From positions 20,625 to 84,624 of the forward strand of contig DASUDP010000124.1 in the NCBI GenBank assembly GCA_036275535.1: a stretch of DNA of 64,000 nucleotides, written 5' to 3'. The translations under genes were made by a program, and so were the position numbers. The stretch's first letter is position 1. Every line of letters starts with the position of its first letter. The notes beneath the pieces are model-generated. The model ran no database searches, had not been told where the DNA came from, and was given only the letters and a program-made list of their open reading frames with translations. The stretch comes from Acidimicrobiales bacterium. GTDB taxonomy: Bacteria; Actinomycetota; Acidimicrobiia; Acidimicrobiales; VFJN01. This document shows, piece by piece, positions 7,162 through 16,004 of the stretch.

Positions 7162-8010
7162 ATGGCCGATCCGACCCTGACCAGCGAGCCTCCCCTCCCC
7201 CGCCTGCTGATCATCGGCGCGCCCAAAGCGGGCACGACGACGCTGGCCGCGTGGTGGGACCTGCACCCCTTGGGGTTCACCGCGCCCGATAAGGAAGTGC
7301 AGTACTTCAACGTGTACCACGAGCGCGGCCAGGCCTGGTACCGCCGGCAGTTCCGGGGGATGGGCTCGGCGCAGGTGGGCTGCGATGCCTCACCTGGCTA
7401 CCTCTACGTACCCCATGCGCTCACCCGGATTCGGCGGGAGATCCCCGAGGCGCGGCTCGTGGCGGTGCTGCGAGAGCCCGCCACTCGGGTCTGGTCGCAC
7501 TGGTGCTACTTCACAGCCCTCGGCGCGGAGATCCGGCCCTTCCACGAGGTGGTGGCGGACGCCGAGGTCGGGTTCAGTGCACGCGGCGTCGACTACGCCC
7601 TGTTCAGTCGCTACCTCGCTCCGCTCCGGGAGGTGGTGGACCGGTTCGGACGTGACCAGCTCCTGGTGCTGTTCACCGACGAGATGCGGGCGGATCGTCA
7701 GGGTGTGTTCGACCGGCTTTGCGACCACGCCGGCGTCGAGCGAGCCCCGCTCCCCGACACCCCCGACCGCAACCAGGGGACGTTTCCGCGATCAGCACGC
7801 GCTCAACGGCTCTTGCAGCAGGCGCGGGCGGGCCATTGGCCGGCCGGGATCGGGCGTCGCCTGATGGCGGCAAACGCCTCGGCCAGCGGGCCACCCGCGG
7901 CCGACCCTGAGCTGCTCGATCGACTGCGAGCCATCTTCACCCCGGACCTCGGACGGCTGCAAGACTGGCTCGGTCGGCCGCTACCAGCGACGTGGGGAGC
8001 CACTCAGTAG
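7162..8010 (+). CDS. Sulfotransferase-family protein (PAPS-dependent type)
   Basis: 5'-phosphosulfate-binding loop LLIIGAPKAGTTTL and 3'-phosphate motif VLREPATRVWSHW. The 3' end overlaps the era stop region by 7 nt, convergently. Confidence 0.75.
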   Translation: MADPTLTSEPPLPRLLIIGAPKAGTTTLAAWWDLHPLGFTAPDKEVQYFNVYHERGQAWYRRQFRGMGSAQVGCDASPGYLYVPHALTRIRREIPEARLVAVLREPATRVWSHWCYFTALGAEIRPFHEVVADAEVGFSARGVDYALFSRYLAPLREVVDRFGRDQLLVLFTDEMRADRQGVFDRLCDHAGVERAPLPDTPDRNQGTFPRSARAQRLLQQARAGHWPAGIGRRLMAANASASGPPAADPELLDRLRAIFTPDLGRLQDWLGRPLPATWGATQ

Positions 8011-8843
8011 CCGAAGCGCTCCATGGCCTTGGGCCGGCTCTGCCAGTCCTTGTCGACCTTCACGATGAGCTCGAGGTAGGTGCCCTCGGGGAGCTGCTGG
8101 CGCACGGCGGTGCCGACCTCCTTCAGCACCTGGCCCTTGTGCCCGATGACGATCCCCTTCTGGCTGGGCCGCTCGACGAGGATCTCGCAGCGGATGAGCG
8201 GCCAGTCCCACTCGACGACCCGGGCCGCGATCGAGTGGGGCAGCTCGTCCCGGGTGCGGCGCAGCAGCTGCTCGCGCACGAGCTCGGCCACCATGAACGC
8301 CTCCGGCACGTCGGTGACCATGTCGTCGGGGAAGTACTGGGGGCCGTCGGGCAGGCGACCGATGAGGTGTTCGACCAGGGCGTCGACCCCGTCGCCGGTC
8401 TTGGCCGACACCGGGAAGTACTCGCTCAGCTGGAGCCCGGCGGCGGCCACCAGCTGCTCGGCCACCGCCCCCTTCGACGCCTTGTCGACCTTGTTGACCA
8501 CGCACACGGCGTCCTTGGGCACGAGGTTGGCCACCCACTGGTCGCCCCGCCCGAACGGCTGGGTGGCGTCGAGGACGAAGCACACGATGTCGACGTCGCC
8601 GATCGTGCCCTGGGCGGTGGCGTTCAGGCGGGTGCCCAGCTGGGTGCGGGGCTTGTGGATGCCCGGGGTGTCGACGAACACGACCTGGGCGTCGGGGCGG
8701 GTGAGCACGCCCATGATGCGGGTGCGGGTCGTCTGGGGCTTGTCGGAGGTGATGGCCACCTTGGTGCCGAGGATCCGGTTGAGGAGGGTGGACTTCCCGA
8801 CGTTGGGGCGACCGACGAAGGTGACGAAGCCGGAGCGCATCAC
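8004..8843 (-). CDS. era: GTPase Era
   Basis: G1 GRPNVGKSTLLN, G3 DTPG and G4 NKVD, with a C-terminal KH-like region (IVIGHKGQVLKEVG). Start is GTG 8843 or ATG 8840, overlapping the upstream stop. Confidence 0.9.
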   Translation of the reverse strand: MMRSGFVTFVGRPNVGKSTLLNRILGTKVAITSDKPQTTRTRIMGVLTRPDAQVVFVDTPGIHKPRTQLGTRLNATAQGTIGDVDIVCFVLDATQPFGRGDQWVANLVPKDAVCVVNKVDKASKGAVAEQLVAAAGLQLSEYFPVSAKTGDGVDALVEHLIGRLPDGPQYFPDDMVTDVPEAFMVAELVREQLLRRTRDELPHSIAARVVEWDWPLIRCEILVERPSQKGIVIGHKGQVLKEVGTAVRQQLPEGTYLELIVKVDKDWQSRPKAMERFGY

Positions 8844-10198
8844 TCGCCCCCACCGTCGACCGACACCCGGTCCGCGGACGGCGGGGCGGACGTCGGATCG
8901 GTGGCGTCCAGGCGACGGAGCCGGACGCGGCCGATGCGCCGCCCCTGCACTCGCTGGGCGGTGAGCTGCCAGCCCTCCACCTCGACCGCCTCGCCCTCGG
9001 CCGGGACGTGGCCCAGCTCGGAGAGGAGCAGGCCACCGATGGTGTCCCAGTCGCCCTCGGGAAGCTGGGCGTGGATGAGGTCGTTCACCTCGTCGAGGGC
9101 CATGCGGGCGTTGACCCGCACGTCGCCCCCGGGGAGCGGCTCGATCATCGGGTCTTCCACGTCGAACTCGTCGACGATCTCGCCGAGCAGCTCCTCGATG
9201 ATGTCCTCCAACGTGACGAGCCCCGCCGTGCCGCCGTACTCGTCCACCGCGATGGCCATGTGGAAGCGCTCGACCTGCATCTCCCGCAGGAGGTCGGCCA
9301 CGCCCTTGGTCTCGGGCACGAAGTGGGCGGGGCGGGCCAGCTCGGCCACGGGGAGGTCGCCCTTGCCGTCGCGGTCGGCCCGCATGAGGTCCTTGGCGTG
9401 CACGACGCCGATGACGTCGTCGATGCCCTCCCCGCAGACCGGGATCCGGCTGTAGCCGTTGAGGATCACGACCTCCATGGCGTCAGCGGCCCGGAAGTCG
9501 GCGGGGATCGTGACCATGTCCGTGCGGGGCACCATGACCTCGCGCACGACGGTGTCGCCCATCTCGATGACGGACTCGATGAGCGCCCGCTCGCCGGCCT
9601 CGATGACAGCCTCCTCGACGGCCATGTCGGCCACGGCCAGGAGCTCGGCCTCCGACGTGTAGGGGCCGCTCTTCAGCCCCTTGCCGGGCAGGATCACGTT
9701 GGTCAGCCCGATCAGGCCCCGGGACAGGAGTCGCAGGGGAGGCCAGTTGGCGAGCACCTTGATCGGCCGGGCGGCGGCCAGGGCGGCCCGGTCGGTGTGC
9801 TGGATGGCCCACGTCTTGGGTGCCACCTCGGCCACCACGAAGAACAGAGTGACGTTGATGACCGTGGCCCCGAGCACGCCCCACGCCCCGAAGAGGCGAC
9901 TGGCCAGCACGCCGAGGAGGGTGGACTGCACGAGCTGGGTCGACAGCACGACGAGGAGCGTCGGGTTGAGCCACTCCTGGTGCTCGACGAGCGACAGGAG
10001 CACCTGACCACGCTTGCCCTTCGTCTCGGCCAGCGCCTGCGCCTTGGCCCTGGTGACGCGGGTGAGCGCCGTCTCGGCTGCGGCCAGCACGATCGAGAGG
10101 AGGAAGAGGACGACGACGGCCGTCGCGATCAGCCAGTCCGCGTTGGACATCGCCGCCGCGAGCACGGTTCCGCTCGAACTTGGAGGGTGGGCGGTCAC
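8840..10198 (-). CDS. CNNM/DUF21 transmembrane + tandem CBS + CorC_HlyC protein (hemolysin/TlyC-CorC family)
   Basis: N-terminal DUF21-type helices (AAETALTRV). CBS-pair region (REVMVPRTDMVTIP...). C-terminal CorC_HlyC-like region. GTG 10198 overlaps the ybeY stop (GTGA); ATG 10150 is an alternative start. Confidence 0.8.
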   Translation of the reverse strand: MTAHPPSSSGTVLAAAMSNADWLIATAVVVLFLLSIVLAAAETALTRVTRAKAQALAETKGKRGQVLLSLVEHQEWLNPTLLVVLSTQLVQSTLLGVLASRLFGAWGVLGATVINVTLFFVVAEVAPKTWAIQHTDRAALAAARPIKVLANWPPLRLLSRGLIGLTNVILPGKGLKSGPYTSEAELLAVADMAVEEAVIEAGERALIESVIEMGDTVVREVMVPRTDMVTIPADFRAADAMEVVILNGYSRIPVCGEGIDDVIGVVHAKDLMRADRDGKGDLPVAELARPAHFVPETKGVADLLREMQVERFHMAIAVDEYGGTAGLVTLEDIIEELLGEIVDEFDVEDPMIEPLPGGDVRVNARMALDEVNDLIHAQLPEGDWDTIGGLLLSELGHVPAEGEAVEVEGWQLTAQRVQGRRIGRVRLRRLDATDPTSAPPSADRVSVDGGGE

Positions 10199-10818
10199 CG
10201 GTGGTGATGGTAGCGGTCGAGGAGCTCGCGCTCCCGGGCCTGCATGGCGGCCGTCTCGTCCGGCTCGGCGTGGTCCATGCCGAGCACGTGGAGGACGCCG
10301 TGCACGACCAGCAGGGCGAGCTCGTCGTCGTAGCTGCCGGCGTGCTCGGGCGCCTGGCGGGCGGCCACGGCCGGGCAGACGACGACATCGCCGAGCAGCA
10401 TCGGGAGCTCGGTCACCTCGGGCGGCTCACGGTCGGGGCCGGTGCTGCCCGAGTCGGGCCAGCGGCCGCCGTCGATGGGGTCGTCGATGGGGAAGGCCAG
10501 GACGTCGGTGGGGCCCTCCTTCTCCATGAACCGGCCGTTGAGCTCGGCCATCACGGCCTCGTCGACGAAGACGAGCGAGAGCTCGGCCTCGCCCCGGACG
10601 CCGGAGTCGTGGAGGACGTTGGTGGCCAGCTCGACCCAGCGGTGCAGCTCGACGGGGTGGTCGGTCTGCTCGTCGACGCCGAACACCTCGACCTCGCCCT
10701 CGGCCGGCGGGCGGCGCTTGCGGTTCGTCATGGGCAGCCGCGGCAGCTCCTCGTCGAAGCCCTCGGGGAGGTCGCTGGGATCGGGCCGGTCGGGCCCGAT
10801 GGGAGGGTCGCCGGCCAT
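10195..10818 (-). CDS. ybeY: rRNA maturation endoribonuclease YbeY
   Basis: Zn-binding HGVLHVLGMDH motif. ATG 10818 overlaps the phoH stop (ATGA). The track ORF 10195..10920 runs further into phoH. ATG 10731 is an alternative start; the Pro/Asp-rich N-terminal extension has coding-like third positions. Confidence 0.85.
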   Translation of the reverse strand: MAGDPPIGPDRPDPSDLPEGFDEELPRLPMTNRKRRPPAEGEVEVFGVDEQTDHPVELHRWVELATNVLHDSGVRGEAELSLVFVDEAVMAELNGRFMEKEGPTDVLAFPIDDPIDGGRWPDSGSTGPDREPPEVTELPMLLGDVVVCPAVAARQAPEHAGSYDDELALLVVHGVLHVLGMDHAEPDETAAMQARERELLDRYHHHR

Positions 10819-12851
10819 CAGCGGTCGTGCTTCGCCGGCGGGGCGGCCCGCTCGTAGGCGTCGACGATGTCCTGCACGATCCGGTGCCGCACCACGTCCC
10901 CGCTGGTGAGGTGCACCCAACCGAGGCCATCGATCCCGGTGAGGATCCGCTCGAGCCCGCCGAGCCCGCTGCGGCCCCCGGCCACGTCCACCTGGGTGGT
11001 GTCGCCGGTGACGACGGCCTTGGACCCGAAGCCGATGCGGGTGAGGAACATCTTCATCTGCTCAGGCGTCGTGTTCTGCGCCTCGTCCAGGATGATGAAG
11101 CTCGAGTTCAGGGTGTTGTGGGTGACGAGGAAGTCATCGGTGACGTAGAGCGAGTCCCCCGCCCCGACCTGGATGCACACGGTCTCCGCCACGCCGGCCG
11201 GCTCGATGCTGTCGACGAACCGCATCGGCCGTCCCGCCCCGAGCTCCCGGTACCGCTGCGCCTTGCGCTCCAGCCGGAACGGCTCGATGCCCGCCGGGAG
11301 CCGGATGTCGAGGATGTACGCATCCTGGCGGTGGTGCACGGCTCGACCCCGGGCCAGCCCCGGCGTGCGGCCGGCGGCAGGGCGGACCCGGCTGTAGGCG
11401 ACACCGCCGAGGGAGCGCACGAGGAACACGACGTCGTCGTGCAGCTGGGGCGAGCAGGTCCTGTAGTGGATCCCGCAGCGGCGAGCGGTCTGCCCCACCG
11501 GGCCGCCGTCGGTGTCGAGCAGCCCTTGGAGGACGGCGAGCCGCACCTCGGACGAGTTGAGGAGGTACTCGAGGGGGAGGAACTTCGTGGCCGAGGTGGT
11601 GCCCGCCAGCATCGTCTCGCGCAGGAGCACCGTCACCGGGTTGGCGAGTGGGCCCCGTCGCGGACCCTCCCGGCGCAGGACGTAGTCGATCTCGTTCTTC
11701 TGGCTGAGCCCGATGCCGTCGAAAGCGGCCTCGACGGCCATCGCCAGCTCAGGGTCTCCGGTCGTGAACGAGGGCGTCGTGCGCGTCGTGAGGCATCCGT
11801 CGCCGAGCAGCAGGCCGAGCGCGTAGGGCTCGATCGAGACGGGCCGCGGCTCGAACTCGACCGGCTGCGACACCAGCGGGAGCTCGAAGCGGCGCTGGTG
11901 GTGCGGCCGGAGGCGCCCCACCATGTCCCGGGTCTGCACGACGCGGCCCGGCTTGCCGTGGCGCCGATCGCTGGGCGTTGTGACGAACCAGAGGTGCTCG
12001 GCACAGGCCAGCGTCTCGGCTCCGTCCTGGGCCCGCACCCGGAACACCTCTCGGCGCCCCTGCGGGAACACACCGAGCACGGGGGTGGGCCGCCCGTCGG
12101 AGCCCACCACCAGATCGCCCACGGCCAGCTCGCCGATGCGGCGCCACCCCCACGGGGTGAGCACGCGCCGGTCGACCGGTTGGGCGCGGCCGCGCATGAA
12201 GGCCAGGGGGGCCACCTCGACCGCGCCGCGCTCGAGGAGCTTGCCGGCGTTCTCGGTGCCGACCATGTCGTGGAGGGCGTCCCACAGCGGGCGCAGGTAG
12301 GGGTCGACCTTGGCCATCAGGTCGCCGGGGAGGAAGCCGAGCCGCTCCCCCGCCTCCACCGCGGGCCGGGTGAGGATGATGCGGTCGACCTGCTTGGACT
12401 GCAGCGCCTGCACTGCCATGGCCACGGCCAGCCAGCTCTTGCCGGTGCCGGCCGGCCCCACGCCGAAGGTGATGACGTTCTCGCGGATGGCGTCGACATA
12501 GCGCTTCTGACCGCTCGACTTCGGTCGCACGGGCCTGCCGCGAGCGGGGCGCAGGACCTCGGCCGTGAGCACCTCGGAGGGGCGCTCGTCGGCCCGCACC
12601 ATCTCGACGCTGCGGCGGACCGTGCCGGCATCGAGCCGGTGGCCCTGCTCGACGAGCACCACCAGGTCCTCGATGAGGGCGCCCACCCGCTCGGCGTCGT
12701 CACCCTCCAGGGCGAACTCGTTGCCCCGCACATGCACCGCGACCTCGGGGAACGCCGCCTCGATGGCCCGGAGCACCTCGTCGCGCTCGCCGAGGAGAGC
12801 TGGCATGAGGTGGTTGCCGGGGACGGAGATCTTGACCTGGGTGCTCGACAC
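10818..12851 (-). CDS. phoH: PhoH-family ATPase interrupted by an in-frame 357-aa intein
   Basis: Walker A GPAGTGKSW, ...LAFMRGR | intein | TLNSSFIILDEAQNTTPEQMKMFLTRIG (Walker B). The exteins sum to 320 aa, the usual PhoH size. GTG start at 12851. Confidence 0.9.
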   Translation of the reverse strand: MSSTQVKISVPGNHLMPALLGERDEVLRAIEAAFPEVAVHVRGNEFALEGDDAERVGALIEDLVVLVEQGHRLDAGTVRRSVEMVRADERPSEVLTAEVLRPARGRPVRPKSSGQKRYVDAIRENVITFGVGPAGTGKSWLAVAMAVQALQSKQVDRIILTRPAVEAGERLGFLPGDLMAKVDPYLRPLWDALHDMVGTENAGKLLERGAVEVAPLAFMRGRAQPVDRRVLTPWGWRRIGELAVGDLVVGSDGRPTPVLGVFPQGRREVFRVRAQDGAETLACAEHLWFVTTPSDRRHGKPGRVVQTRDMVGRLRPHHQRRFELPLVSQPVEFEPRPVSIEPYALGLLLGDGCLTTRTTPSFTTGDPELAMAVEAAFDGIGLSQKNEIDYVLRREGPRRGPLANPVTVLLRETMLAGTTSATKFLPLEYLLNSSEVRLAVLQGLLDTDGGPVGQTARRCGIHYRTCSPQLHDDVVFLVRSLGGVAYSRVRPAAGRTPGLARGRAVHHRQDAYILDIRLPAGIEPFRLERKAQRYRELGAGRPMRFVDSIEPAGVAETVCIQVGAGDSLYVTDDFLVTHNTLNSSFIILDEAQNTTPEQMKMFLTRIGFGSKAVVTGDTTQVDVAGGRSGLGGLERILTGIDGLGWVHLTSGDVVRHRIVQDIVDAYERAAPPAKHDR
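11115..12185 (-). mobile_element. Intein (Hint domain + LAGLIDADG homing endonuclease) with class 3 (WCT) signature
   Basis: Block A AQPVDRRVLTPWGWRRIGEL has Ala at position 1. Block B LACAEHLW. LAGLIDADG motifs YALGLLLGDGCL and LAVLQGLLDTDGG. Block F ETVCIQV. Block G FLVTHN followed by Thr+1. Boundaries were checked codon by codon against the DNA. Confidence 0.85.
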
Positions 12852-12877: not shown

Positions 12878-13522
12878 TTGCCATCTACGCTGCCGCCCGT
12901 GGTCGCTGGGGAGCATGGGCACACGGGCGGGCGAGGCCCGGCGGAGGCGGGCCGGGGGCCCGACGACCTGCTGCGAGGAGACGGCCGGCCGGGGCTCGTC
13001 GATCGGCTCGAGCGCTGGGTGGCCGAGGCCCGGGTGGACCAGGCCGCGATGGAGCGCAGCCGGGAGCGCTGGCTCCGGGAGGTGGCCGACCAGGAGGCGA
13101 CGCTGGCGGGGACCCTCCTCGACCTCGGCGAGCGCGGGGTGGGAGTGACGGTGCGCACCCGCGCCGGGCGGGCCCACCACGGGACGGTGGAGGTGGTGGG
13201 GTCGGGGTTCGTGGCCGTGCGGCTGCGCAGCGGCGCGGTGACGTTGGTGCGGATGGAGGCGATCAGCGTGGTGCGGACGGCGCCCGCCGAGGAGCTGACC
13301 CTGGGCGACCGGGGCGTCCGCAGCGAGCTGGGCTTCGACGACGTGCTGCGGGAGCTGGCGGCCGACCGGGAGCGGGTGCTGCTGGTGGCCGGGGACGGAG
13401 CTGACGTGGCCAGCGGCGAGCTGCGGGCCGTCGGCCTCGACGTTGCGGTGGTGCGCGGCGAGGGCCCGCCGTCGTCGGTCTACGTGCCCCTCGCCGCGAT
13501 CACCGAGGTGACCGTCGGGTAG
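12878..13522 (+). CDS. Hypothetical protein with two tandem small beta-rich repeats; start uncertain
   Basis: ORF with high third-position G+C and no family I recognise. The listed TTG start is only 26 nt from the divergent phoH start, so a later GTG is possible. Confidence 0.5.
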   Translation: MPSTLPPVVAGEHGHTGGRGPAEAGRGPDDLLRGDGRPGLVDRLERWVAEARVDQAAMERSRERWLREVADQEATLAGTLLDLGERGVGVTVRTRAGRAHHGTVEVVGSGFVAVRLRSGAVTLVRMEAISVVRTAPAEELTLGDRGVRSELGFDDVLRELAADRERVLLVAGDGADVASGELRAVGLDVAVVRGEGPPSSVYVPLAAITEVTVG

Positions 13523-13762: not shown

Positions 13763-13890
13763 GACCTGCACCGTACACCCGAGGATCGGCTCCTTGGAGA
13801 ACCTTCGTGGATTCCATGCCCTTCCATGGAGGAAGATGGACGAAGCGGAGCGAACTGGTCGATCAAAGAGATCTGAGCGCAGGAGACGGG

Positions 13891-14655
13891 ATGGCGGGAC
13901 GGGGGCGTCCATCGGCCCGAACCGACAGTACGGGGGCACAGAGCGGCGGCACGGCGGCGGCCGACGCCCGGCGCCGAATCGAGCGCGCTCCCACCCTCCC
14001 GGGTAGCCGGGCCCTCCTCGGGGGCCTGCTCGTGACCACCGCGGCCGTCGGCGTGTTCGCGGCCTCCGCGTCCTCCGGGGACGACGACGGCTCTCCCATC
14101 GTGGTCGCGGCGACGGATCTGCGGGCCGGGGAGGTGATCGAGCGCGACGATCTCTCGGTCGCCCGGGGGACCCTCCCCACCGGAGCGGCCGGGTTCGCTT
14201 CGGTGGACGACGTCATCGGCCGGGCGGCCCTCGGCCCCATGGCGCGTGGCGAGCTCATCCAGACCGGTTCGGTGACGCCCGACCGGAGCCTGGGGGCCTC
14301 CCGCCGGGAGGTCGCCCTCACCCTTCCTCGGGAGCAGCTGGCGGTCGGACGGCTGCGAGCGGGCGACCGCGTCGATGTGTTCGTCACCCAGGAGGACCGC
14401 ACCGCAGTGGTGGTGCAGGGGGCCGAGGTGCTGCAGCTCGTGGCATCGGAGGAGGGGTCGCTCACGACGAGCCGCGAGGTCGAGCTGGTGGTGGCTGTCG
14501 AGTCGGGCGACCTGGTGACGGCGCTCGTGCACGCGCTGCGCACCGGGGAGATCACCGTGGTGCGATCCACGTTCGCACAGGAGCAGCCCGCCGCAGCCGG
14601 CGACGGTGTCGACCCCGCCGGTGCCGGCCGCCGCACCGGGGACGAGACGGGCTGA
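13891..14655 (+). CDS. cpaB: SAF-domain Flp pilus assembly protein, CpaB/RcpC-like
   Basis: N-terminal membrane anchor (LLGGLLVTTAAVGVFAA) followed by a SAF-like region (VVAATDLRAGEVIERDDLSV...GELIQTGSV). AGGAGA lies 5 nt upstream of ATG 13891. Confidence 0.7.
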   Translation: MAGRGRPSARTDSTGAQSGGTAAADARRRIERAPTLPGSRALLGGLLVTTAAVGVFAASASSGDDDGSPIVVAATDLRAGEVIERDDLSVARGTLPTGAAGFASVDDVIGRAALGPMARGELIQTGSVTPDRSLGASRREVALTLPREQLAVGRLRAGDRVDVFVTQEDRTAVVVQGAEVLQLVASEEGSLTTSREVELVVAVESGDLVTALVHALRTGEITVVRSTFAQEQPAAAGDGVDPAGAGRRTGDETG

Positions 14656-16004
14656 TGCCCGCCGAGCGCTTCGTCCTCCTGGGTCTGGCCCAGGTGCGCT
14701 CGCCCTGGTTCCGCGAAGCGTCGCGGTGGAGCACGGCAGCATCGCTGCCCATCGAGTTCGTCAAGACGATGTCGACCGAGGAGGTGCGAGCCCGACTCCG
14801 ATCCGGCCGCGCCTACTCCGCCCTCCTCGTGGACGACACGGTGACCGGGCTCGACCGCGACCTCATCGACCTCGCCAGCGAGGTCGGGTGCAGCGTGATC
14901 GTCGTGGACTCGGGGCGCACAGCCCGGCGCTGGCGCGAGCTCGGAGCCTCCGCCACCCTCCCACCCGAGCTCGACCCGGCGACCCTCCTGCAGGTGTTGA
15001 GCCAGGTCGCGCAGCCCGTCTCGCACGGGGACGAGCGGCCGCCGCTCCCGGGGGAGCCCGATCGGCCGTTGGGCTTCCTGGGCCACCTCGTGGCGGTCAC
15101 CGGGCGTGGCGGCGTGGGAACCTCCACCGTGGCGATCGGGCTCGCGCAGCACCTCGCCGACGACCCGCGTCAGGCCGGACTGGTCTGCCTCGCCGACCTC
15201 GCGCTCAACGCCGAGCAGGCCATGCTGCACGGCTCCCCGGACGTCGTGCCCGGCGTGCAGGAGCTCGTCGACGCCCATCGGACAGGGCTGCCCTCCACGG
15301 AGTCCATCCGCGCGCTCACGTGGCAGATCGAACGCCGCGGCTACGACCTGCTCCTCGGCCTGCGGAGGCACCGGGACTGGACGGCCCTTCGGCCGCGAGC
15401 CGTCAGCGCCGCCATCGACGGGTTGCGGCGCAGCTACCGGATCACGGTGGCCGACGTCGACGCCGACCTGGAGGGCGAGCGCGCCACCGGCTCGATCGAC
15501 GTCGAGGAGCGCAACGCCCTCGCTCGGGCCTCCGTCGACGTCGCCGAGCTCGTGGTCGTCGTCGGAGGCCCGGGGATGAAAGGGATCCACGCGCTCGTCC
15601 GATGCGCTCGGGACCTCGTGGAGCACGGCGTCCCTGCGGGGTCGCTCATCCCCGTCGTGAACCGGGCGCCGAAGAGCCCGCGAGCACGGGCCGAGCTGGC
15701 GAGAGCCTTCGGTGATCTCCTCGGAGCCGTCGACGGCAACGGCCGCGCCCCCGTGGCCGCCCCGCTGTTCCTGTCCGAGCGTCGCAACCTCGATACCCTC
15801 CTGCGCGACCGCAGCCGGGTACCCGACGCGTGGATCCGCCCGCTGGCCGGGGCGGTGCTCGCTGTGCTCGACGACCGGCCCGCCGTGTCCCAGCGCGGCC
15901 CCCTCGTACCGGTCGACAACGAGACGCCGGTACGGGTCGCGCCCGGGAGCCTCGGCGTGTGGACCGAGCAGGGCCACGACGGTGTGGCCGAGGGCACGGG
16001 CTGA
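14655..16004 (+). CDS. CpaE/TadZ-like (Ssd-like) ParA/MinD-family ATPase with receiver-like N-domain
   Basis: Deviant P-loop VTGRGGVGTSTVAIGLA without the conserved Lys. The N-terminal about 110 aa look receiver-like. ATGA overlap with cpaB. Confidence 0.7.
   Translation: MPAERFVLLGLAQVRSPWFREASRWSTAASLPIEFVKTMSTEEVRARLRSGRAYSALLVDDTVTGLDRDLIDLASEVGCSVIVVDSGRTARRWRELGASATLPPELDPATLLQVLSQVAQPVSHGDERPPLPGEPDRPLGFLGHLVAVTGRGGVGTSTVAIGLAQHLADDPRQAGLVCLADLALNAEQAMLHGSPDVVPGVQELVDAHRTGLPSTESIRALTWQIERRGYDLLLGLRRHRDWTALRPRAVSAAIDGLRRSYRITVADVDADLEGERATGSIDVEERNALARASVDVAELVVVVGGPGMKGIHALVRCARDLVEHGVPAGSLIPVVNRAPKSPRARAELARAFGDLLGAVDGNGRAPVAAPLFLSERRNLDTLLRDRSRVPDAWIRPLAGAVLAVLDDRPAVSQRGPLVPVDNETPVRVAPGSLGVWTEQGHDGVAEGTG

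Follow-up and report, generated by a model that had tools for sequence, protein, structure and literature searches.

The window, the whole 64,000-nucleotide stretch of Acidimicrobiales DNA that was analysed, contains an oversized phoH gene in a conserved operon. The genes and gene parts given with coordinates below lie on the minus strand. The open reading frame (ORF) list gave a precursor of 677 aa for this PhoH/YbeZ-type P-loop ATPase (10818..12851), and NCBI nr holds an identical 677-aa protein. Directly downstream is the endoribonuclease gene ybeY (10195..10920; PF02130, E 1.5e-32). The longest ybeY ORF overlaps phoH and its PF02130 match begins at residue 92, so that ybeY probably starts at a point downstream of this ORF's first codon. 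The operon phoH-ybeY-corC-era is completed by two genes assigned by Pfam, one of the CNNM/CBS/CorC type (8840..10198) and the GTPase gene era (8004..8843). The sole Rfam or ARAGORN find in the window was one tRNA-Ala, which is unrelated to the intein described below.

Pfam matched the PhoH domain (PF02562, E 1.5e-83) in two stretches on either side of an in-frame insert of 357 codons with the edges RGR/AQP and THN/TLN (residues 223-579, 11115..12185). The N-extein (residues 1-222, 12186..12851) carries Walker A (GPAGTGKS) and ends in APLAFMRGR, while the C-extein (residues 580-677 and the stop codon, 10818..11114) starts with TLNSSFIILDEAQNTT and carries Walker B, with nine residues between its start and the Walker B Asp-Glu; both align to the solved PhoH structure 3B85. 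Removal of the insert restores a contiguous, conserved PhoH of 320 aa that aligns to 3B85 without a gap across the RGR/TLN junction (E 3.3e-87). The PhoH domain, the presence of both Walker motifs and the adjoining ybeY identify the host gene as phoH. The original prediction had placed the end of the N-extein at residue 222, the resumption of the C-extein at residue 580 and 357 codons between them in a 677-aa ORF, and the analysis agreed with it residue for residue. It had also expected a contiguous extein across RGR/TLN, and this was seen with 3B85 and with at least 80 empty-site orthologues.

When the AlphaFold model of the insert (pLDDT 91.8, pTM 0.91) was searched with Foldseek, three intein endonucleases came out on top, with E 1e-17 to 4e-11 and TMq reaching 0.76: TliVMA, PI-PfuI and, best overall, PI-SceI (E 1e-17, TMq 0.72-0.76). 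A HINT fold built from blocks A, B, F and G was seen in the model, in Foldseek matches to intein and Hedgehog HINT domains and by phmmer, and the class 3 mini-inteins 6BS8, 6RIX and 6RIY matched this splicing domain. In the region that separates block B from block F, the model's secondary structure follows the alpha-beta-beta-alpha-beta-beta-alpha order of LAGLIDADG endonucleases, with fold matches to PI-SceI, I-DmoI and I-Tsp061I. The Pfam Hint models scored below their thresholds on the insert (E 0.006) and LAGLIDADG_3 above its cut-off (E 6e-8). Thus the Hint fold proposed earlier for residues 223-579 was recovered, together with a LAGLIDADG domain, by the combination of Pfam, phmmer, AlphaFold and Foldseek. 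Sequence searches returned intein homologues down to E 1e-194 and matches to solved class 3 and class 1 inteins down to E 3e-10. The best of the solved structures were gp41-1, both unmodified and as 6RIZ with a grafted Trp-Cys-Thr (WCT) triplet, and three DnaB inteins of class 3, namely 6RIX, 6RIY and 6BS8. The homologue E-values, the matches to solved inteins, the PI-SceI fold match and the split Pfam PhoH domain place the intein nature of the insert far beyond chance.

All sequence motifs quoted in the original prediction were found at the places given for them. Block A, AQPVDRRVLTPWGWRRIGEL (residues 223-242, 12126..12185), starts with Ala1 and has no N-terminal nucleophile. Block B, LACAEHLW (residues 281-288, 11988..12011), contributes Cys61 (B7), His64 (B10) and Trp66 (B12) in intein numbering, and aligns to His65/Trp67 of the Mycobacterium smegmatis DnaBi1 and M. 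chimaera DnaB1 inteins (6BS8, 6RIX). The homing-endonuclease domain spans approximately intein residues 96-320 (11226..11900), as judged from Pfam, the model and the fold matches. It has two LAGLIDADG motifs, YALGLLLGDGCL (residues 343-354, 11790..11825), with LLLGDG and Asp129 of the intein, and LQGLLDTDGG (residues 441-450, 11502..11531), with LLDTDG and Asp226. Block F, ETVCIQV (residues 556-562, 11166..11186), carries Cys337 at F4, which is precursor Cys559 (codon 11175..11177), the proposed initiating nucleophile, and aligns to the engineered Cys of the gp41-1 WCT intein 6RIZ. Block G comprises FLVTHN (residues 574-579) and the following Thr+1 (11112..11132), so that Thr355 (G5), His356 and the terminal Asn357 are followed by the C-extein nucleophile Thr580.

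Class 3 inteins, which are a rare type, are defined by the lack of Ser, Thr or Cys at position 1 together with the WCT triplet (PMC2807308), and their definition and mechanism are set out in PMC2807308, PMC6195587 and PMC7664689. The PhoH insert has Ala1, Trp at B12 with His at B10, Cys at F4, Thr at G5 and Thr at +1. The residues His64, Trp66, Cys337, Thr355, His356 and Asn357 were invariant in 106 of 106 close PhoH inteins, in all 78 PhoH inteins from Mycobacteriales, Nocardia and Gordonia, and in each of the 105 full-length relatives from other exteins. Both LAGLIDADG aspartates were likewise invariant in the 106 homologues. The +1 residue of homologues was Thr in 102 and Ser in three. The class 3 signature that had been read from this one gene was therefore complete and family-invariant in its WCT triplet, and the lack of a residue-1 nucleophile extended across the close homologues except for 17 of 106 with Ser1, the other 89 having Ala. 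These Ser1 homologues could in principle start splicing in a class 1-like manner, and the family may thus be mechanistically non-uniform. Tori and Perler reportedly widened the class 3 definition in 2011 to inteins with Ser1 or Cys1. Ser1 members may thus still follow the class 3 route; three inteins of the Ser1/Cys1 kind are mentioned in PMC2807308.

These observations very probably identify residues 223-579 as a full-length class 3 intein, consisting of a HINT domain and a double-motif LAGLIDADG endonuclease between blocks B and F. In the host protein, a housekeeping PhoH/YbeZ ATPase, it is flanked by the conserved MRGR motif on one side and the Walker B box on the other. The splicing chemistry, splicing competence and endonuclease activity are predicted; for the mechanism, the models are the homologous DnaB inteins of Bethlehem, M. 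smegmatis (DnaBi1) and M. chimaera (DnaB1). Since there is no nucleophile at Ala223, Cys559 (F4) is proposed to attack the Arg222-Ala223 peptide bond to give a block F branched thioester, assisted by His286 (B10), Trp288 (B12) and Thr577 (G5). Transesterification would then move the N-extein onto the side chain of Thr580 (+1), cyclisation of Asn579 would free the intein, and an O-to-N acyl shift would produce a normal Arg-Thr peptide bond and an active PhoH of 320 aa. At the DNA level, the element is expected to be mobile now or to have been so recently: the endonuclease would cut an intein-free phoH at the conserved junction between ATGCGNGGNCGN and ACNCTNAAC, and the intein would be copied in by repair. 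A class 1 intein that had received a WCT triplet by grafting did not splice efficiently by the class 3 route (PMC7664689), so the triplet alone is not proof of mechanism. The predicted class 3 route of the PhoH intein is argued from natural homology rather than solely from the motif. A 2026 paper states that no PhoH intein has been the subject of a reported splicing study (PMC13347336).

An alternative is that the intein splices by the class 2 (KlbA-like) route, in which Thr580 directly attacks the Arg222-Ala223 bond and Cys559 has a structural role only. In formal terms, the combination of Ala1 and an oxygen nucleophile at +1 would allow this, and in a model of the Bethlehem intein the scissile bond is only slightly farther from the +1 Thr than from the F4 Cys (PMC2807308). 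However, class 2 inteins do not have the WCT triplet (PMC2807308) and the class 2 intein of Mja KlbA carries Asp147 at F4, whereas the PhoH intein has Cys at F4 and a triplet that is complete and invariant in the 289 sequences examined. The F4 Cys is also absolutely required in the homologous Bethlehem DnaB intein (PMC2807308), and the nearest solved relatives include class 3 DnaB inteins. A class 2 route is therefore highly improbable. It is just as hard to credit that the intein is splicing-dead or crippled in this genome, yielding only an inactive 677-aa precursor or cleavage products and making phoH effectively a pseudogene. In favour of such decay are a 1-nt deletion within the intein of the nearest intein relative (L004) and degraded (mini) versions in other lineages. 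Here, however, the frame is intact over 677 codons and the catalytic residues of blocks A, B, F and G are all in the family-invariant state. Extein conservation is high (88 % identity to L001, a close intein-bearing relative), the phoH-ybeY-corC-era operon is intact, and the splicing blocks show a dN of 0.08 against a dS of 0.87 when compared with L001.

A further possibility adds a conditional switch to class 3 splicing. Block B of the PhoH intein has C-x-x-H in place of T/D/S-x-x-H, and the B7 Cys is expected to lie near the catalytic block F Cys. A Cys283 (B7)/Cys559 disulfide or bound zinc might form under stress and pause PhoH maturation and, as a consequence, PhoH/YbeY-linked RNA processing; this proposal is unlikely. 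In its favour, the F4 Cys of M. smegmatis DnaBi1 forms a reversible disulfide with a second cysteine and zinc inhibits splicing of that intein (PMC6195587, PMC7360933), and Cys occupies B7 in all 106 close homologues and, among the 105 wider relatives, in 75. In the Mycobacteriales branch of the PhoH intein, however, 75 of 78 sequences have Ser at B7, which indicates that this Cys is not needed by the family. That the B7/F4 pair acts as a redox- or zinc-gated switch in this particular branch, with PhoH maturation in this ribosome-maturation operon paused under stress, is a conjecture with little probability. If true, it would represent conditional splicing with a built-in, conserved partner Cys, whereas Cys48 of M. 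smegmatis DnaBi1 is not conserved.

The closest known systems are the mycobacterial PhoH inteins, which have the same host protein and the same class (WCT triplet). The original prediction had left room for an uncatalogued insertion site, but PhoH inteins, including those of class 3, are already in the literature: 21 were counted by Novikova et al. in 2016 (PMC4760082), an alignment by Kelley et al. in 2018 shows the class 3 PhoHi from M. fortuitum and M. xenopi (PMC6195587 Fig. 6a), and a PhoH intein of M. smegmatis is noted in PMC7360933. PhoH inteins of Mycobacteriales are 59-64 % identical to the window intein and, like it, include a LAGLIDADG endonuclease and are full-length, at about 359 aa. 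They differ in residing in another host class, the window extein being nearest to Acidimicrobiia, and in having Ser rather than Cys at B7. The published M. fortuitum and M. xenopi inteins probably occupy the same insertion site, judging by their close relatives. A search with the M. asiaticum PhoH intein against 5.8 billion proteins returned no match named M. fortuitum, M. xenopi or M. smegmatis, so the link to the published inteins was made by a locus search through fortuitum-complex and other mycobacterial genomes. A literature search for the phrase 'PhoH intein' found no paper. The window intein is thus an ordinary addition to a catalogued and widespread set of class 3 PhoH inteins.

It was on DnaB inteins that biochemical and structural work established the class 3 mechanism (PMC6195587, PMC7664689). 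Those of M. smegmatis (DnaBi1, 6BS8), M. chimaera (DnaB1, 6RIX/6RIY) and M. leprae have in common with the window intein the WCT triplet, the block B His, the terminal His-Asn and Ala1, match it in sequence over blocks A-B (E 4e-7 to 2e-6) and match the fold of its splicing domain. In contrast, they are mini-inteins of 139-146 aa without an endonuclease, are inserted at the DnaB P-loop and have Asp at B7 where the window intein has Cys. A full-length relative at a DnaB P-loop site (P0153) is 48 % identical and has the same signature. The founding class 3 intein, that of Bethlehem DnaB (Tori et al. 2010, PMC2807308), is also full-length, with 341 aa and a LAGLIDADG domain, and likewise resides in a P-loop NTPase/helicase-type protein. 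Its Trp67, Cys320, Thr339, His340, Asn341 and Thr+1 correspond to Trp66, Cys337, Thr355, His356, Asn357 and Thr+1 of the window intein. However, it has Ser at B7, lies in a phage DnaB extein and begins with Pro1, so that Ala1 is not part of the founding Bethlehem pattern to which it had been ascribed (PMC2807308). Inteins of the mycobacteriophage proteins Phrappuccino gp2 ('terminase') and Alice gp175 (a helicase) are 41.5 % and 36.6 % identical over all 357 positions and have the same Ala1, H-x-W, block F Cys and THN, although in other exteins, in phage genomes and at an identity far below that among PhoH inteins. These homologues agree with the discussion in PMC5050341 of class 3 inteins being exchanged between phages and hosts. 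The best fold match, PI-SceI (the yeast VMA1 intein, PDB 1VDE/1LWT), also combines HINT with a double-motif LAGLIDADG domain, but it is a eukaryotic class 1 intein (Cys1, Asp-type block F) with 15-17 % identity and, at 454 aa, is larger and has an additional region for DNA recognition.

About 140 actinobacterial genomes were found to carry the same intein at this site. The locus search placed a PhoH intein at MRGR/T in 78 genomes of Mycobacteriaceae, Nocardia and Gordonia, among them M. peregrinum, M. porcinum and M. setense of the fortuitum complex. No second intein was detected when the whole window was scanned in six frames with the family profile. Among the matches listed, 80 of 80 N-extein relatives, mostly Acidimicrobiia at 55-81 % identity, had the empty site FMRGR/TLN; these are a sample and not a census, and the equally close, intein-bearing L001 and L006 lie outside it. 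In comparisons with Thermoleophilia hosts, the intein was 70-73 % identical and the PhoH exteins 55-59 %, with a dN of about 0.21 for the intein and 0.35-0.40 for the exteins. In the endonuclease region dN was well below dS, with dN/dS roughly 0.24-0.44. As dS was near saturation and compressed by extreme GC3, only contrasts in dN and the sign of dN/dS were used.

The patchy distribution and the greater conservation of the intein than of the host gene across classes argue for horizontal homing rather than for long residence. Ancient residence of the intein in its lineage through vertical inheritance is rather unlikely. For L001 and L006, the closest intein-bearing Acidimicrobiia, extein identity equals or exceeds intein identity, as co-inheritance predicts. 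However, the empty sites in all 80 listed N-extein relatives oppose vertical descent, and the Thermoleophilia comparison is the reverse of its expectation. The GC3 of the intein (0.933) is near that of the exteins (0.955 and 0.96), and the match in codon usage reported in the original prediction is real as a match in composition. The long residence drawn from it was not supported, given the patchy spread and an intein divergence that does not follow that of the host gene. All intein hosts found were high-GC actinobacteria, so this match does not discriminate between the two histories, and GC3 and codon usage were rejected as evidence of residence time.

The importance of the locus lies mainly in the correct annotation of phoH, which should be recorded as an intein-containing gene with a mature protein of 320 aa and not as an oversized or fused PhoH. 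More widely, the PhoH inteins are a large collection, provided by nature, of class 3 inteins that are full-length, with hundreds of alleles at one site that vary between Ala and Ser at position 1 and between Cys and Ser at B7. As tools for protein engineering, class 3 inteins hold some interest. With its patchy spread and an intein more conserved than the host gene, the set is also a clean illustration of horizontal homing within Actinomycetota.

The phoH ORF (10818..12851, minus strand) encodes a precursor of 677 aa, an exact copy of which is present in NCBI nr. In the translation, the N-extein ends at residue 222 with ...VEVAPLAFMRGR and the C-extein starts at residue 580 with TLNSSFIILDEAQNTT, the two being separated by the 357 codons of Ala223–Asn579 (11115..12185, minus strand). 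The motifs AQPVDRRVLTPWGWRRIGEL, LACAEHLW, YALGLLLGDGCL, LQGLLDTDGG, ETVCIQV and FLVTHN/T were found as quoted in the original prediction, whose ORF translation and motif positions agreed exactly with the window sequence. The Pfam PhoH domain (E 1.5e-83) was split into two stretches, one on each side of the insert. Within the insert, LAGLIDADG_3 (Pfam) scored above threshold, the Pfam Hint models gave weak matches only, and the NCBIfam models for intein-containing DnaB, GyrA, RecA and Tes were matched. Removal of residues 223–579 left a 320-aa protein that aligned with 3B85, a solved Corynebacterium PhoH-like protein (E 3.3e-87), with no gap over ...MRGR-TLN..., giving the predicted contiguity across the RGR/TLN junction. 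An AlphaFold model of the insert, for which 51 homologues were used, had a mean pLDDT of 91.8 and a pTM of 0.91. Foldseek ranked PI-SceI, TliVMA, PhoVMA and PI-PfuI highest for this model (E 1e-17 to 4e-11, TMq ≤0.76), followed by class 3 DnaB mini-inteins and then by free-standing LAGLIDADG enzymes and Hedgehog HINT domains. The profile matches, the gap-free joined extein and the modelled fold with its Foldseek ranks together indicate that the insert is, as proposed, a full-length intein consisting of a HINT domain and a double-motif LAGLIDADG endonuclease.

Class 3 inteins are defined by a position 1 without Ser, Thr or Cys and by the Trp(B12)-Cys(F4)-Thr(G5) (WCT) triplet, the +1 residue being Ser or Thr in most cases, and their splicing passes through a branched thioester on the block F cysteine (Tori et al. 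2010, PMC2807308; PMC6195587; PMC7664689). The window's intein has Ala1 (codon 12183..12185, minus strand), His64, Trp66, Cys337 (precursor residue 559; codon 11175..11177, minus strand), Thr355-His356-Asn357 and Thr+1. The signature residues His64, Trp66, Cys337 and Thr355-His356-Asn357, the complete triplet included, were invariant in three sets of homologues: 106 close PhoH inteins, 78 PhoH inteins of Mycobacteriaceae, Nocardia and Gordonia, and 105 relatives within other host proteins, the last being the full-length sequences among the best 150 of the 50 %-identity cluster representatives. Of the solved structures, those matching best in sequence were gp41-1, 6RIZ, which is gp41-1 carrying a grafted WCT triplet, and the class 3 inteins M. 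chimaera DnaB1 (6RIX/6RIY) and M. smegmatis DnaBi1 (6BS8); in these alignments the H-x-W of block B and the Cys of block F were in register. With WCT present and Cys at F4, the intein does not fit the class 2 (KlbA) pattern. In a class 1 intein that received it as a graft, the triplet was insufficient by itself (Beyer et al., PMC7664689), so confidence in the class 3 assignment derives from natural homology, including 48 % identity to P0153, a full-length class 3 intein at the DnaB P-loop. On this sequence evidence the class 3 assignment is supported, and splicing would be predicted to proceed through Cys559 to a branched thioester. As a small correction to the original prediction, the Bethlehem intein, the founding member, begins with Pro1 and not with Ala1 (PMC2807308).

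Of the 106 close PhoH inteins, 89 had Ala and 17 had Ser at position 1, a natural series for asking if the block F cysteine is still used by members with Ser1; the +1 residue was Thr in 102 and Ser in three. The sole distinguishing detail of the window's copy is the Cys at block B position 7 (intein Cys61; 12003..12005, minus strand), which was found in 106/106 members of its branch and 75/105 wider class 3 relatives, compared with Ser in 75/78 Mycobacteriales-branch PhoH inteins. That this residue would act with the catalytic cysteine in redox or zinc control, on the analogy of DnaBi1 (PMC6195587), is a speculative and improbable reading.

HMMER, run unfiltered against 1.84 billion representatives, gave 18 101 matches at E ≤1e-3 and 4430 at E ≤1e-30. 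Full-length homologues with the same signature were found in mycobacteriophage Phrappuccino gp2 (41.5 % identity), Alice-type helicases (36.6 %) and jumbo-phage helicases, consistent with the movement of class 3 inteins between phages and hosts that Kelley et al. 2016 discuss (PMC5050341). In seven PhoH-family proteins (P0124, P0125, P0126, P0131, P0134, P0139 and P0142), inteins of the same family occupy, taken together, at least three different sites: the P-loop (GxGK/AQP...THN/T), GFLPG/PQP...THN/T with Pro1, and the window's site (MRGR/AQP...THN/T). Several of these proteins (820–1229 aa) contain two such inteins at once.

PhoH was listed among intein-bearing bacterial proteins by Novikova et al. 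2016, who counted 21 cases in Actinobacteria and Deinococcus-Thermus (PMC4760082), and a PhoH intein has been stated for M. smegmatis (PMC7360933). An alignment in Kelley et al. 2018 sets the M. fortuitum and M. xenopi PhoH inteins, both class 3, beside DnaB class 3 inteins with WCT marked (PMC6195587, Fig. 6a), and a 2026 paper describes the splicing of PhoH inteins as still without study (PMC13347336). The same intein occupies the same phoH site in the fortuitum complex and many other mycobacteria. Given these publications and this shared site, the window's copy is not a new kind of intein; class 3 PhoH inteins were already known, and it adds to them an unremarkable new member, carried by an Acidimicrobiia-like genome.

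The intein query matched 1547 proteins at E ≤1e-3, the best 120 of which were all PhoH with the same intein, and 62 genome loci from Acidimicrobiia, Thermoleophilia, Streptomyces, Nocardiopsis, Pseudonocardia, Mycobacterium and others. A scan that started from the M. asiaticum allele confirmed 104 loci and listed at least 80 further loci; those listed were largely Mycobacteriaceae, Nocardia and Gordonia. Among the matches listed, the nearest relatives of the window's exteins were Acidimicrobiia MAGs (77–88 % identity). The N-extein query returned an empty, contiguous site (...FMRGR/TLN...) in 80/80 loci among the matches listed, mostly Acidimicrobiia (55–81 % N-extein identity), in line with the contiguity foreseen for intein-free orthologues; these loci are a sample rather than a census, from which two intein-bearing Acidimicrobiia (L001 and L006) are absent.

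Long residence had been proposed from codon usage, and the match to the host gene was confirmed (GC3 0.933 for the intein versus 0.955 and 0.96 for the exteins). All hosts are high-GC, so this match does not support long residence. Intein and extein divergence were also out of step: L001 was 77 % identical to the window in the intein and 88 % in the exteins, whereas five loci in Thermoleophilia hosts (L002, L018, L024, L035 and L055) had inteins 70–73 % identical but PhoH just 55–59 % identical. For the three of these computed (L002, L018 and L055), dN was approximately 0.21 for the intein versus 0.37–0.40 for the exteins. Judged from these comparisons, the pattern appears to be one of horizontal homing and not of vertical descent; apart from residence time, the original interpretation is supported. 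In the endonuclease region dN was well below dS, and both catalytic LAGLIDADG aspartates were invariant among close homologues. Codon positions 1 and 2 of the target-site DNA were conserved in empty and occupied alleles alike. Same-site inteins shortened to 219–347 aa with intact AQP...THN ends were observed at eight loci (L061, L059, L048, L046, L006, L050, L017 and L051); their endonuclease domains are partly or largely deleted, the usual endonuclease decay toward mini-inteins.

The closest intein relative (82 %) was in L004, a Microthrixaceae MAG, where the loss of 1 nt from a run of G near intein codon 43 (L004:3120-3140) breaks the frame of an otherwise intact intein-containing phoH; either the gene is a genuine pseudogene or the break is a homopolymer error of long-read sequencing. 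Actinobacterial-type phoH contigs, intein-bearing in L034, P0074 and P0105 and with an empty site in L116, came from MAG bins with the labels Melainabacteria, Xanthobacteraceae, Planctomycetaceae and Chloroflexota. As all of these contigs are short, mis-binning is a likelier explanation than transfer between phyla.

The host protein is a housekeeping YbeZ-type PhoH, since phoH leads a conserved phoH-ybeY-CNNM/CorC-era cluster. The longest ybeY ORF (10195..10920) shares 103 nt (10818..10920) with the 3' end of phoH, and its true start is probably well downstream because the Pfam YbeY match begins at residue 92. Two plus-strand ORFs without a Pfam match (12878..13522 and 14655..16004) have a strong coding signature (GC3 0.91–0.94), and between them lies a SAF/FlgA-chaperone-like gene (13807..14655) divergent from phoH.
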